Part shown: positions 9,962-53,700 of the stretch, one piece after another
How the letters are laid out: each line of letters opens with the position of its first letter
How positions within the stretch are numbered: the stretch's first letter is position 1
Assembly: GCA_951406725.2 (NCBI GenBank)
Contig: OX597818.1
Location: 17,112,001-17,176,000 of the forward strand
Reading direction: 5' to 3'
Length of the DNA stretch: 64,000 nucleotides
Source of the DNA: Octopus vulgaris
Taxonomy: Eukaryota
Program-made: the position numbers and the translations under genes
The notes under the pieces: model-generated
The model's database searches: none
What the model was told of the DNA's origin: nothing
Seen by the model: only the letters and a program-made list of their open reading frames with translations

Positions 9962-10412
9962 TGATAAAGTTTGACGTAACTCTTTAACGGGCACAAGAGC
10001 ACTTCTACAAAACTCGCCGAACATTTTACATCAACTGGCTGCATTTTGAGGAACACCTGAAAATGCACATTCTCAGAAAATATTCTGAATATACTACACT
10101 TCCAGTCCTCAAAATGCATGACAGCAAATATGCTTGTGAATTACTAACACTACGCCCTGGAGGGATGAATATAATTTCAGGAGAATTCCATCACATTTAC
10201 ACAAAACTTTTCGAATAAATATTCTTTTTTCCTTTTTTTTTTTTCCTTTTTGCAAGTTGCAAAATTGATGACTGATAATGTCATTCTGTCAAAGTGGAAA
10301 CGCAGAATTTCCTCGTTTATATATTTTTGAAATTCTGTGTTTCTTCATTTTACATTTTGAACTTGAAAAAGACAGACGAACAGTCGAAATATCGTTCAAA
10401 CAAATAAACAAT
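9962..10412 (+). mobile_element. Penelope-like element 3' remnant (GIY-YIG C-terminus plus hammerhead-containing end)
   Basis: Translates as ..FNGHKSTSTKLAEHFTSTGC..EHLKMHIL..LLTLRPGGMN, matching the RFxxH..AEHF..LxTLxPxGLN pattern of PLE endonucleases. A hammerhead motif follows. Confidence 0.65.
10356..10400 (+). ncRNA. Minimal type I hammerhead ribozyme, U3-A8 core variant
   Basis: Stem I TTTGAAC/GTTCAAA, core TTGAAAA plus an extra A, stem II GAC..GTC, GAAA, palindromic ATAT, and a cleavage triplet ending at C10393. Confidence 0.55.
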
Positions 10413-10418
10413 CTATTA

Positions 10419-11660
10419 TCAGGTCATCCCATAAGTGCTGTCCGATTTTACCTTTTTTAAAATTGAATGAAATTTTATAGTATTTTAGAATGTCTAACGG
10501 AATTTAAAATTATTTTATGCATTTGTGTACATTTAAAATAATTAAATATTATTTTACAGAATAATAGAATTAAAATTTCTTTGATTAAAACCCTTTCTAA
10601 CATGGAAGTATCCAAAGAGCATTTGAGGCACATAATGCTTTATGAGTACAAAAAAGGAAACTCTGCAGCCGAAGCGATTCGAAACATACACTCAGTTTAT
10701 GGGAAAGAATGCTTGAATGAAAGAACTTGCAGAAGATGGTTTGCAAAATTCAGAAGTGGAGATTTCAGCCTTGAAGATGAAGATCGAACAGGACATCCAG
10801 TTGAGTTTGATGATAAGCTCCTTGAGGCATTACTTGAAGAAAATCCTGCATTATCAGTTGAAGAATTGGCAATAAAGCTTAGTTCAAACCATACACCGTC
10901 ATCTTCAACAATTTGGAAAGGTTCCTCAACTTGGAAAATGGGCACCTCATGAATTGTCCGAAAGCCACCGCAAATCCCGAATTGACATCTGCTCTTCTCT
11001 CCATTCTCGCGAACTCATTTCACCCTTTTTGGATAGACTTGTGACTGGTGACGAAAAATGGATCTTCTATCGAAATGTTAAACGTCGTAAACTGTGACTT
11101 GGTAAAAGGGGGAAAACTCAACCACAACTGAGAAGGGAACTTCATGGGAAAAAGATTTTTCTCTTTATCAGGTGGGACTGCAAAGGAGTAATTCACTTTG
11201 AATTGTTACCACCTAATGCAACAATCAATGCTCAAGTCTACTGTCAGCAATTAGAGCGTTTGAACCAAGCTTTGAAGGAAAAAGATCCGCTTTAGTGAAT
11301 CGAAAAGGGGTGATGTTTCATCAGGACAATGCGCGACCCCACACTACAAAGATCACATCACAGAAGATCGAAAAGCCTGGTTGGGAAAAAATTCCTCATC
11401 CACCTTATTCTCCCGACCTTGCTCCTTCAGACTATTATTTGTTTCGTAGTTTACAGAATCGTTTGGGGGACATAACTTTCGCAAGCCAGGAAGAGGTTGA
11501 AACTGACATTTCAGAGTTCTTCGCTTTGAAACCAAAATAGTTTTACATTGATGGGATTAAAAAACTTGTAAATAAATGGAAGGAAGTCATAGATAATTAG
11601 GGAAAGTACATTGCTGATTAAATTTCAATTAAATATAACATTTGATCACTTGTTTTCTTT
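10419..11660 (+). mobile_element. Mariner (DD34D) transposon, inactivated; right TIR not found
   Basis: TA followed by left TIR TCAGGTCATCCCATAAGTG. Contains the HTH (MEVSKEHLRHIMLYEY..RRWFAKFRSGD), WAPHEL, TGDEKW, HQDNARPH and HPPYSPDLAPSDYYLF, with frameshifts and stops. Confidence 0.92.
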
Positions 11661-13342
11661 ATGCGGAACGAGCATGTTTCTTTTAAGGGTTTGTTTCGTG
11701 CAGTGTATGTTTCAGTATAGTGTTTATTGCAGCAATTTTTGTATGTCATTTGTTTCTTTCTTCATAGTTTGTCAGAGGTGCATGAAGTATAGCAAAGACA
11801 GTCTCTGCCCGATGGCTGGAGCTGCAAAAAAGAAAAAAAGATGGTAGCCAAATCTTGAAATCACTCCCTCCAGCCTAACAGAGAACAAGTATACTGTACA
11901 AATCCGAAACAATATGCACACGTCCGCACCCAATAAAATGATAGAATGGGCACAGAAACCATTAAAAAAATAACAGAAATATAATGACTCAAGTGATCTA
12001 GTCCGGTACTACAATTTCTGGCACACCGCTATTTTAGACTAACCGGAATATTGAAAGGAAGATTTTTACCGTTTAACATTCGTACATAGGATAAAACAAC
12101 GTAAAGCTGTGAAAACATGAAAGATCTACTTCAAATGCCATTGCAAAAAACAACCGCCATTTCACAGACAGGAAGAAGCATCTCTGTTGAATAGACAACA
12201 TAGTCTATATGAATAGACTATATATATATATATATATGTATATATATATATATATATATATATATATATATATATATATATATATATATATATATATATA
12301 TAACGTAAAACAAATGGAAATGTCATCTATGAATGCAGTTTCCTGAAATAATATGTTATATTCTATCCAGATGTCCTAGATTAGCTGTGATGTTGTTAGA
12401 TCAACCGATTTAAACTAGATAAATCAGTAATTCATACATAAGAGATCCGACCTAACACTGTGGTAGAAGTAACAATGACGTCTTAAAAAATGGAATAAAA
12501 CATGAAAATATCAGACAGACAAGAGCCCGGAAGCTAAGGTACTCTGCTACTAAAACAATAAGTAAATTTATGGTATGTAAGAATGTAATCATCATCCTGT
12601 AATTAATTGAAACGTCGCACCAAACTCGGCTCTGTGTAGACACGTTGGAGTTGCATTAAGTACGAGCAAGTACTTAAAGTTTAGCTTGCTATATTCAAGT
12701 GCCATTTATAGCAAATATTACACCGTATAAATCACGAAAGATAGTTTATGGCTTTTATTAGCTTTTTTATAATTTTTTTTTCAGAATATTCATTAATTTT
12801 GGGTTGTTGTAAGTGGGTAAATCATTAATTTTATGGATAATATTTGAGTAGATAGTAAATAGGAAAGTGGTTTTTATCAGGAAATCGCAAGAAATAAGCA
12901 CATTTCACAACGCTTACTCTATAAACGATATATATTTTAAGTTACAAGTTACAAGCACGTTAGATGTAACTTTCTACCAATTAAGAATAATGAAAGAAGT
13001 ACATATAAGTTGTATGTATGTACATATGTATGTATGTATGTATGTATGTATGTATGCATGTATGTATGTATGTATGTATGTATGTATGTATGTATGTATG
13101 TATGTATGTATGTATGTGTGTGTGTATGTGTATGCATGTGTTTTTATGTATATATATATATATATATATATATACAAATTGAGATAGGGGTTATAAATAC
13201 AACCCTCCATGGGATAACATATATCCAATATACTGCCAGTGAAGTACCCAACAAAGTTGATACATAAATGTTAAGAATTGCGATGCAATTATTTCATTTA
13301 CTGTATTATATGGGCAAAGGTAAAGTGATTTACCACAAATTC

Positions 13343-51607: not shown

Positions 51608-51698
51608 TTTTAGCTGATGAGTACGGGACACGTTTATATGCTGCAATTTTTGCAACTTTTAATAAAGCCTGTCCTTGTATGAAACGATTGTACTAAAA
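51608..51698 (+). ncRNA. Type I hammerhead ribozyme in the inverted pLTR copy
   Basis: Stem I TTTTAG/CTAAAA, core CTGATGA, stem II GTACGGGACA/TGTCCTTGTAT, GAAA, quasi-palindromic ACGATTGT, and a GUA cleavage site after 51692. Confidence 0.85.
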
Positions 51699-52770
51699 AC
51701 CTATCCATTCTTGTTGCTTCTTTCTCGCCTATAATCACCCCACATTACTGTATTGTTAAAACCGTATAGTTTTTTTTGGTGCATCTAAGTTAGGTACCAT
51801 ATTCAAGTAAATTCATTTAAATTAACTTGAATCTTTATTGCTTTATATATATATATATATATATATATATATATATATATATATATATATATATATATAC
51901 GACAGGCTTCTTTGAGTCTTACGTATGTATTCTCATGCATATAGCTGCGTGTTTAGACATGTTCATATATACACACTAAGACATACGAATATATATATAT
52001 ATATATATATATACATACACCCCCCCCCCACACACACATATATATATTTATATAAGACAGGCTTCTTTCGGTTTTACGTATGTATTCTCATGCATATAGC
52101 TGCATGTATAGACATGTTCATATATTGTTGGCATCCTTTTTGTCTCGGGAGACAATGGAGTTGCGCATAAAGTAGTCTAGTCCGGCTTTTACATTTCATA
52201 GATGTTCATATATATTTAAATGATAAACTTCTGGAAAATTTAATAGATTTTTACATTTCCAGAGATGGCTTGGATCTGTAGTCTTTGAATCAGCTTTCTT
52301 CTTTCTGGTTTGGAGAAGCCAAATTTCTCAAGATTTAGGCAGTGTGTTACATATTTCAATGTCCCAATAATTACAGATATAAACCTGAACTTGTAATCTG
52401 GATGTATGTATGTATATGCGCATATATCTATTTGTGTGTGTCGTTGTGTCTGTGTTTGTCTCCTCCCCCACCACTAATTGACAACCAGTATTGGTTTGTT
52501 TATATCCTGGTAACATAGCGGTTTAACAAAAGAGAACCCGATAGAATAAGTACCGGGCTTTAAAAAAATTATTGGGGCCGATTTGTTCGGCGAAACCCTT
52601 TAAGGCTGTACCCTAGCTTGGTTGCAGTTCTAACACTGAAACAAGTAAAATATAAAGCACACACACACACACACACACACACACACACACACACACACAC
52701 ACACACACACACACACACACACACACACACACACACACACACACATATATATATATATATATATATATAT

Positions 52771-53700
52771 AAGTTAGAGGTTATGCAACCATCTAAGGGA
52801 TAGATGCATGCGTAGGCACTCCTGGTGTATTACCTTACTATGTATAGTCCTAGCTATAAGGTATACAGTTGTAGGTAATCTAAAGGTAAAACCGTGGTTT
52901 AATATATATAGAAAAGAAATGGAGCAATGTTTAACAATGAGAAGTAGATCATTGGTATTAAAAAGTCATTATTTAATTGTAGTTTCGTAACCATTTACAG
53001 CTGTTTCTGTTTATCAAATCGGAATAAATTTACATTTACCTCGTTATATTTAACAAACATCTTCAGAATGATTTTAGAGGGTAATGAAAAGAAAAGAAAA
53101 AGAAAAGGGAAAAATGTTCGTTAAGTCTTCAGGCTTACATTTTAGCGACTTGTTGGGTTCTCCGTGTTTGTAGTTTCCTCCATTAGATGCATGGAGCAGT
53201 GAGTGGGGACAAGGATTATTTGACCGGTGTTGTTATTTGTAATATAAGACGCTGTTTCTGACCTCTAGGTTAGTCCCTATGATTACAAAGGACGCCCCTG
53301 TTAAAAACTAAGGATGCTATTTAAAGTTTGTACGACATAGTGTATACATATCGGATACGTAAAGAAATAATTAAAAGAGTTAAAGAGTACATAAGCAAGA
53401 ATCAATAAAATCAATAGAAATTATAACGTGAAATGTGAGTCGTTGAATATTTTATATAGGATTATATGTCCCGGTGTATAACGTAGATTTTTAATTGACA
53501 GTTCGGTTAATCGGGGTATTTAATTTAAAATAGTAAAGTGAAGTTAAATTATGTTCTGTGGTAGGTGGGAGATAATAAGATGTTAGGCAGGTCCGCTAAT
53601 AACCTGTAATGTAGGGATTAGCGATATTTTGAGAATAAAAATTTATCTTTTTGCAAACATATTCTATGTTTCTCGTCTCGTTTATTAAGTAATTCTGATT
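52771..53700 (-). mobile_element. Non-coding PLE-derived remnant ending at (TA)n
   Basis: Contains an intact minus-strand hammerhead and its 3' end abuts the (CA)n(TA)n tract. The right boundary is approximate. Confidence 0.55.
52990..53072 (-). ncRNA. Type I hammerhead ribozyme (PLE type)
   Basis: Minus strand: stem I ATCATT/AATGGT, core CTGAAGA, 12 bp stem II TGTTTGTTAAAT/ATTTGATAAACA, GAAA, perfect palindrome ACAGCTGT and a GUA site. Confidence 0.85.

Follow-up and report, generated by a model that had tools for sequence, protein, structure and literature searches.

Are hammerhead ribozymes with unusual core pairs decayed copies, or do they belong to families that inherited a compensatory swap? 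This question is raised by a 64,000-nt stretch of the Octopus vulgaris genome (assembly GCA_951406725.2, contig OX597818.1, forward-strand positions 17,112,001 to 17,176,000; hereafter the window, numbered from its first letter). An earlier note on this stretch had read its motifs as minimal hammerheads of the kind carried by Penelope-like elements (PLEs), in which the 3-8 core pair may be C-G, G-C or U-A. The window lies in a 2.8-Gb assembly, and each motif was found to be part of a genome-wide repeat family, six families in total (F10356, F13836, F14042, F41833, F51608 and F52990). It is probable, in our judgement, that type I hammerhead folds stand at the 3′ ends of all six, that the G3-C8 and U3-A8 states are inherited, and that these cores keep a 3-8 pair and self-cleavage, as predicted from their sequence.

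Eight type I hammerhead motifs in the window

All eight proposed motifs, with the given stem III strings, were found in their places by reading the sequence and by a descriptor check. The descriptor specified a type I hammerhead with positions 3, 8 and 9 unconstrained, and it ranked seven of the eight motifs at the top within the window. At a score of at least 13, the window gave 7 matches against a shuffle mean of 0.12 and a maximum of 2 (200 local dinucleotide shuffles). This comparison rules out chance matching in AT-rich DNA. The descriptor missed the 13836 copy, whose stem I has 3 bp; this motif was recognised by visual parsing and from the family alignment. The eight motifs are therefore genuine and exceed chance expectation.

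In all motifs, stems I and II close the junction while stem I is open-ended, which is the type I layout. The core N3-UGA-N7-N8-A9 and GAA, a paired 3-8, A15.1-U16.1 and a non-G17 are present, with the 13836 copy deviating at position 9 (U). The F10356 motif (10356..10400, plus strand) reads UUGAAAA with an extra A (U3-A8); it has a stem I of 7 bp, a stem II of 3 bp and stem III AUAU, and the predicted cut is at C17 (10393). The two F41833 motifs, 41753..41802 on the minus strand and 41833..41882 on the plus strand, read GUGAACA with an extra G (G3-C8), with predicted U17 cuts at 41760 and 41875, respectively; the stems at 41833 are 7 bp (I), 5 bp (II) and AAUAUU (III).

The remaining motifs carry C3-G8. 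F13836 (13836..13915, minus) reads CUGAUGU with U9, a long stem II and stem III ACAAAUUGU, and its predicted U17 cut lies at 13839. F14042 (14042..14156, plus) reads CUGAAGA with stem III ACGUAUGU, the commonest family form being ACAUAUGU; its predicted A17 cut lies at 14149. F51608 is present twice (46896..46986, minus; 51608..51698, plus) as CUGAUGA with stem III ACGAUUGU and predicted A17 cuts at 46902 and 51692, and the 51608 motif has a G10.1-U11.1 wobble. F52990 (52989..53073, minus) reads CUGAAGA with U10.1-A11.1, stem III ACAGCUGU and a predicted A17 cut at 52996. When folded without constraints, 10356 and 41833 adopted the expected stems; the four long motifs partly took other folds.

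Parts of the earlier description needed correction. The three core strings CTGANGA, GTGAACA and TTGAAAA describe seven motifs, but the core at 13836 is CUGAUG-U; across 20 copies of this motif context genome-wide, position 9 is A in 11, U in 7 (5 from one cluster) and G in 2. All three 3-8 pair types exist, but four of the six families have plain C3-G8. The stem III string named for 14042 is present, but ACGTATGT is specific to that copy; alignment shows the perfect palindrome ACATATGT in most of the family. The word minimal does not hold in its strict sense for four families, whose long stem-loop II and 8-9-nt stem III resemble published Hydra-clade hammerheads.

Swapped cores are inherited family states

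We searched the genome with the F41833 motif, leaving positions 3 and 8 free. This gave 6,024 matches, with G-C in 95 of the first 100. A base other than C at position 8, combined with C, G or U at position 3, was found in 327 matches, leaving ~5,700 G3-C8 copies, and 1,611 genome copies are identical to the 50-nt motif of the window. C3-G8 in this motif context has no copy in the genome.

For F10356, 36 copies were aligned. The subgroup without a short insertion, to which the window copy belongs (n = 24), has 21 U-A, 2 U.U and 1 C-G, and a tree groups this set with moderate support (80/99). The subgroup with the insertion has 5 C-G, 3 U.G, 2 U-A and 2 others, and a less biased pattern count (n = 16) gave 6 C-G, 4 U.G, 4 U-A and 2 others. 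Thus, C-G and U-A are both inherited states within F10356. The four U3.G8 pattern matches could be a stepping stone between them; at one locus (L058) the inverted partner has C3, so U3.G8 there points to decay. Outside the window there is a second U3-A8 family with 207 matches, of which 97 of the first 100 are U-A.

The claim that the swaps represent covariation was checked by asking whether the family majorities are canonical. They are swapped, as given by the 95 of 100 G3-C8 and 21 of 24 U3-A8 copies, and these copy counts rule out copy-specific decay of CUGANGA for both swapped families.

Swapped cores in an independent 1 Mb sample

We also scored 100 evenly spaced 10-kb stretches of the genome, requiring a score of at least 12 with A9. 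The 21 matches comprised 16 C-G (7 from one array), 3 G-C and 2 U-A, and none had a mismatched 3-8. The shuffle mean was 1.7 matches over all combinations (15 shuffles scored), and the reversed sequence gave 0. At a score of at least 10, non-Watson-Crick combinations made up 3 of 30. Both U-A matches belong to the second U3-A8 family.

Swapped cores thus account for 5 of 21 matches, or 5 per Mb (95% interval 1.6-11.7), which corresponds to ~4,500-33,000 in 2.8 Gb. The expectation that CUGANGA-only searches miss ribozyme motifs is borne out, and such a search would overlook roughly a quarter. Ribozyme censuses should keep positions 3 and 8 free; F41833 alone, with its thousands of copies, falls below every Rfam cut-off where tested. 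One locus (L231:782-4780) holds a 535-bp tandem array (7.5 units, 99% identical), every unit of which contains a C3-G8 hammerhead with stem III ACAAUUGU, and looks like a retrozyme without long terminal repeats (non-LTR retrozyme).

History of the G3-C8 core

The closest octopus family to F41833 shares 55-61% protein identity, has 1,312-amino-acid frames and carries a C3-G8 motif with C9 at the corresponding site of the element. This sister family (L213, L355, L360) is young, with many 1,312-amino-acid frames, 4.6-kb tandems and an imperfect stem III palindrome. Relatives were also collected from metagenomes: 34 loci, 21 of which reach the protein end, gave 10 parsed motifs (six by script, four by eye), with 7 C-G, 3 U-A and 0 G-C. 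By eye, two of the metagenome elements show further core deviations ~100-150 nt past the protein end: L365 has U15.1-A16.1, and L366 has G4.

A tree of 18 proteins joins the G-C family and the octopus C-G family as sisters (100/99). It likewise pairs one U-A element with a C-G element (100/99) and puts the remaining two U-A elements elsewhere, one on a long unsure branch, so that U-A appears in 3 places. Given the C-G sister family and this tree, G3-C8 is most simply read as derived from C3-G8 in one octopus lineage.

How the pair flipped may be reflected in mismatched copies. Among the first 100 of the 327 non-C8 matches of F41833, G3.G8 occurs in 42 versus G3.A8 in 16 (p 0.0009). About 140 copies (~140; L397-L416, L354, L359) are G3.G8, above the expectation from transversion decay. 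The excess possibly marks a sub-lineage, a hotspot or an intermediate. A single basal G3.G8 clade is unsupported, as 20 fetched G8 copies were scattered mainly among older copies, and the loop class richest in G3.G8 still has 73/100 G-C and 8/100 G.G.

These data also bear on whether the swaps are neutral founder mutations, a dead-ribozyme master copy with chance G3 and C8 having been amplified. We hold this to be very improbable. Because young families stem from few masters, a high copy number by itself carries no independent weight, and the G3.G8 copies show that single changes can be copied. However, non-canonical cores occur in at least three separate octopus families and are Watson-Crick in every one, as they are in three metagenome U-A relatives, and mismatched 3-8 is absent at a score of at least 12 in the 1 Mb sample. 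A double change of the core pair fixed in a young family, next to a sister with the usual pair, is evidence from nature that the active fold is under selection. The G-C, C-G and natural G.G states form a ready-made comparison set.

Link to Penelope-like elements

First-look candidates numbered 625 for F10356, 653 for F13836, 96 for F14042, 950 for F41833, 1,527 for F51608 and 390 for F52990. For each family, 40 candidates were scored and 30 loci fetched, with a bias toward copies closest to the window copy. In all six families homology ends shortly after the motif, giving a fixed 3′ end, while the 5′ extent is variable. Genomic copies are mostly 5′-truncated, often in head-to-head pairs, and lie within (TA)n. 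An upstream inverted copy of the same family was present in 9 (F10356), 6 (F13836), 7 (F14042), 8 (F41833), 15 (F51608) and 2 (F52990) of the 30 loci. This layout of fixed 3′ end, 5′ truncation and inverted upstream copy has been described for PLEs (PMC8557442). A direct second copy on the same strand within 1.5 kb was seen at 1 of 180 loci across the six families. Direct tandems with two same-strand motifs exist at L353 (F41833, 4,261 nt apart) and L186 (F51608, 4,650 nt apart).

The PLE assignment holds for F10356, F13836, F41833 and F51608, which are tied to PLE proteins by matches; for F14042 and F52990 no such match was found in the 1.5-kb flanks of 30 loci each, and these two are likely PLEs. 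In full-length units the motif lies ~1.0-1.5 kb 3′ of a frame encoding reverse transcriptase (RT) and GIY-YIG endonuclease, and a few tens of bases from the element end. The G3-C8 family F41833 has frames of up to 1,025 amino acids, with an RT bearing YVDD, a CX3CxxC linker and a Pfam GIY-YIG match (E 1.8e-5). In the window, the RT and GIY-YIG region of F51608 (48444..51025, minus) is 5′-truncated, occupies two frames (49415-51025 and 48444-49592) and is flanked by two inverted 3′ ends; at L186 it is a single frame of 984 amino acids between two same-strand motifs. This protein carries RWK, DKT, CxCX5C, CxxC and CxH, and its target is (TA)n, all Hydra-clade traits; a Pfam search did not match the Hydra-clade protein. 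In F10356, upstream sequence common to many copies encodes a Neptune-like GIY-YIG endonuclease (hidden Markov model independent E-value 2.4e-9, L062). F13836 has Hydra-like RT and endonuclease matches (E 2e-11 and 3e-6) at the single locus L187, where the arrangement is consistent with a long copy and a short inverted one. An endonuclease match at L085 was set aside for this family, being absent from other copies.

F14042 and F52990 might instead be non-autonomous, either SINE-like (SINE, short interspersed nuclear element) or retrozyme monomers, and be moved by PLE proteins. We treat this as a possibility on the doubtful side. RT or endonuclease matches were absent upstream in 30 loci of each with 1.5-kb flanks, their common upstream sequence covers only ~430-580 nt outside segmental duplicates, and animal retrozymes have been proposed as PLE derivatives (10.64898/2026.07.22.740005). 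However, the Hydra 3′ region here is itself ~1.5 kb long, so a gene would lie beyond the reach of these flanks, and a same-strand second copy within 1.5 kb occurs in none of the 30 loci of each. Their AC...GU stem III agrees with published Hydra hammerheads, pointing to PLE identity.

The copies in the window itself are remnants and probably inert. The F10356 3′ remnant (10003..10416, plus), of an old PLE family, is followed directly by a mariner element. The F13836 remnant (13618..14046, minus), likely of the Hydra clade as judged from one locus, adjoins a (TA)n tract and stands head-to-head with the F14042 remnant (14022..14330, plus). F41833 forms a head-to-head insertion, whose left arm (41612..41812, minus) has an optional ~55-nt 3′ tail and whose right arm (41819..41965, plus) is without the tail and ends in (TA)n. 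The 3′ end of the F51608 Hydra-clade PLE (46861..47342, minus), with (TA)n before it, is matched by an inverted, 5′-truncated 3′-end copy (51251..51733, plus) of the same element. The inverted repeats at 46861/51733 were considered as DNA transposon ends and rejected; they are PLE 3′ ends.

Proposed processing of tandem transcripts

How would these ribozymes act? None of the seven stem III strings forms a hairpin alone; six self-pair fully and one does so with a central mismatch, with self-duplex energies from +1.6 to -11.1 kcal/mol. PLE hammerheads do not cut as monomers, and their dimers are slow or weak (PMC4209133). We find dimeric, probably protein-assisted processing of tandem transcripts the likely route. 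A read-through transcript of a tandem would carry two motifs, whose palindromic stem III segments would pair mutually and form two active cores. A cut after N17 would then free unit-length element RNA, probably slowly and helped by the element's own protein. The window pairs are on opposite strands, so dimerisation within one transcript is impossible for them; two same-strand motifs are known here from the DNA tandems at L353 and L186. The change from C3-G8 to G3-C8 in one octopus lineage would have been retained because only a paired 3-8 supports cutting, and the flipped core suggests that the elements likely still need it.

In published work, a G-C swap at 3-8 rescues hammerhead activity in a mutational scan (PMC9901934). 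In an anole PLE hammerhead, C3G/G8C partly rescues activity, and cutting requires the PLE protein (PMC11167929).

Several observations weigh against this account. The descriptor was built after viewing the window motifs, yet it left 3 and 8 unconstrained and the 1 Mb sample is independent of it. No Rfam family reached the cut-off in 6 loci, and of 246 weak matches in the window, the 150 listed include no hammerhead family and are microsatellite-driven microRNA matches only. On the protein side stand the single supporting locus of F13836 and the missing matches of F14042 and F52990. The remaining points also suit another explanation, that the fold persists as a signal (structural or protein-binding) close to where reverse transcription starts, or as a passenger, with cutting absent or unneeded and the 3-8 pair kept for folding. 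Inactive-ribozyme mutants of the anole PLE still inserted in vitro, and its RNA-seq showed no ends at the cut site (PMC11167929). Naiad PLEs spread without canonical hammerheads (PMC8557442). Here, G3.G8 is in excess among the non-C8 copies, copies with a non-canonical position 9 were amplified (C9 in the sister family, U9 in part of F13836), and the stem III self-duplex is marginal in the swapped families (AUAU +1.6, AAUAUU -0.2 kcal/mol). We nevertheless judge this explanation unlikely: unrelated families and organisms all retain the 3-8 pair, G12-A14 and non-G17, the 3-8 contact belongs to the catalytic core (PMC9901934), and G3.G8 is a small, scattered minority.

Retained cutting, our preferred explanation, touches a wider puzzle, since the PLE hammerhead is near universal, yet slow in vitro and unneeded for insertion in the sole reconstituted assay. 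A bolder reading would make F41833 the first natural high-copy G3-C8 hammerhead family, reached through a normally dead G3.G8 step kept as the ~140 older copies. Together with the repeated, independent U3-A8 gains within the same PLE lineage, it would show ribozyme cutting to be under selection in living PLEs, though dispensable in the one in vitro transposition assay. We offer it tentatively and would sooner expect it to fail, in whole or in part, than to hold.

Comparison with known hammerheads

The PLE minimal hammerheads of PMC4209133 share with the octopus motifs the type I topology, the extra base 9/10.1, the palindromic stem III and the terminal-repeat site, as well as opposite-strand pairs and mostly truncated solo copies. 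They include U3-A8 families, with ~1,300 Schistosoma matches among which is the identical UUGAAAA-A core, and one U3.G8 representative; among the legible representatives of its Fig. S3 there is no G3-C8 and no cephalopod. Natural U3-A8 had thus already been published (PMC3088659; PMC4209133 for PLEs), another octopus is known to have hammerhead-bearing Hydra elements (PMC8557442 supplement), and an engineered G3-C8 variant is mentioned in PMC3884650. Engineered C3G/G8C hammerheads carry the same swap as F41833, with partial or strong rescue in vitro (PMC9901934, PMC11167929). Unlike these, the octopus G3-C8 is natural and predominates in a family that amplified recently. Earlier publications cover PLE hammerheads, palindromic stem III, U3-A8 and the extra base following A9; what is new here is the fixed G3-C8 core. 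A natural G3-C8 hammerhead family was not found in the literature, in a search that left some large compilations of hammerhead variants uncovered. Lunse (2017) reportedly lists very many PLE-linked variants and may contain G3-C8.

Among PLE clades, F51608 shares RWK/DKT/CxCX5C/CxxC/CxH, the (TA)n target and an AC...GU stem III with A17 with Hydra-clade PLEs, including Hydra-1_Obim (PMC8557442). It differs in its unit of 4.63-4.65 kb, most Hydra elements being under 3 kb (PMC8557442), and in its 984 amino acids with Asn-rich inserts and long stem-loop II. F41833 resembles Nematis/Neptune PLEs, which have a C-terminal GIY-YIG and a CX2-5CxxC linker, in its DKS, YVDD and GIY-YIG and in a CX3CxxC linker whose short spacer looks Nematis-like (linker read by eye); counted by eye, however, its RT exceeds nematode Nematis by ~65-70 residues between motifs A and B′. 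The RT insert of the F41833 lineage (L351:2968-6045) is also present in the sister family, has at least 186 database relatives and possibly marks an undescribed PLE subclade. Non-LTR retrozymes, short non-coding tandem units that each bear a hammerhead, likewise have type I motifs for which action as dimers is predicted; the six octopus families are dispersed and truncated.

Neighbouring elements

The head-to-head F13836 (minus) and F14042 (plus) remnants (13583-14365) overlap by ~25 nt (14022-14047) and lie between two microsatellites. Their junction resembles an inverted PLE pair but joins two different families, possibly through a template switch between RNAs or through nesting; the joint is absent from the other 29 loci of either family. 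A mariner end with the N-terminus of a transposase (10417-10952; Pfam HTH_48, E 1.5e-24) is inserted 16 nt past the U3-A8 motif. The 10356 motif was considered as part of the mariner, and this was rejected because the mariner terminus begins near 10417 and the sequence that follows the motif differs in other copies. A decayed Neptune-like PLE coding region occupies 61333-63264, with no hammerhead match downstream, either within the window or in the 5 kb beyond it. Decayed RT and endonuclease fragments resembling a long interspersed nuclear element lie at 19524-21073 on the minus strand. A dispersed ~260-nt repeat (D18/D19), probably a SINE, is present between 1539 and 60414 as 13 partial copies in both orientations.

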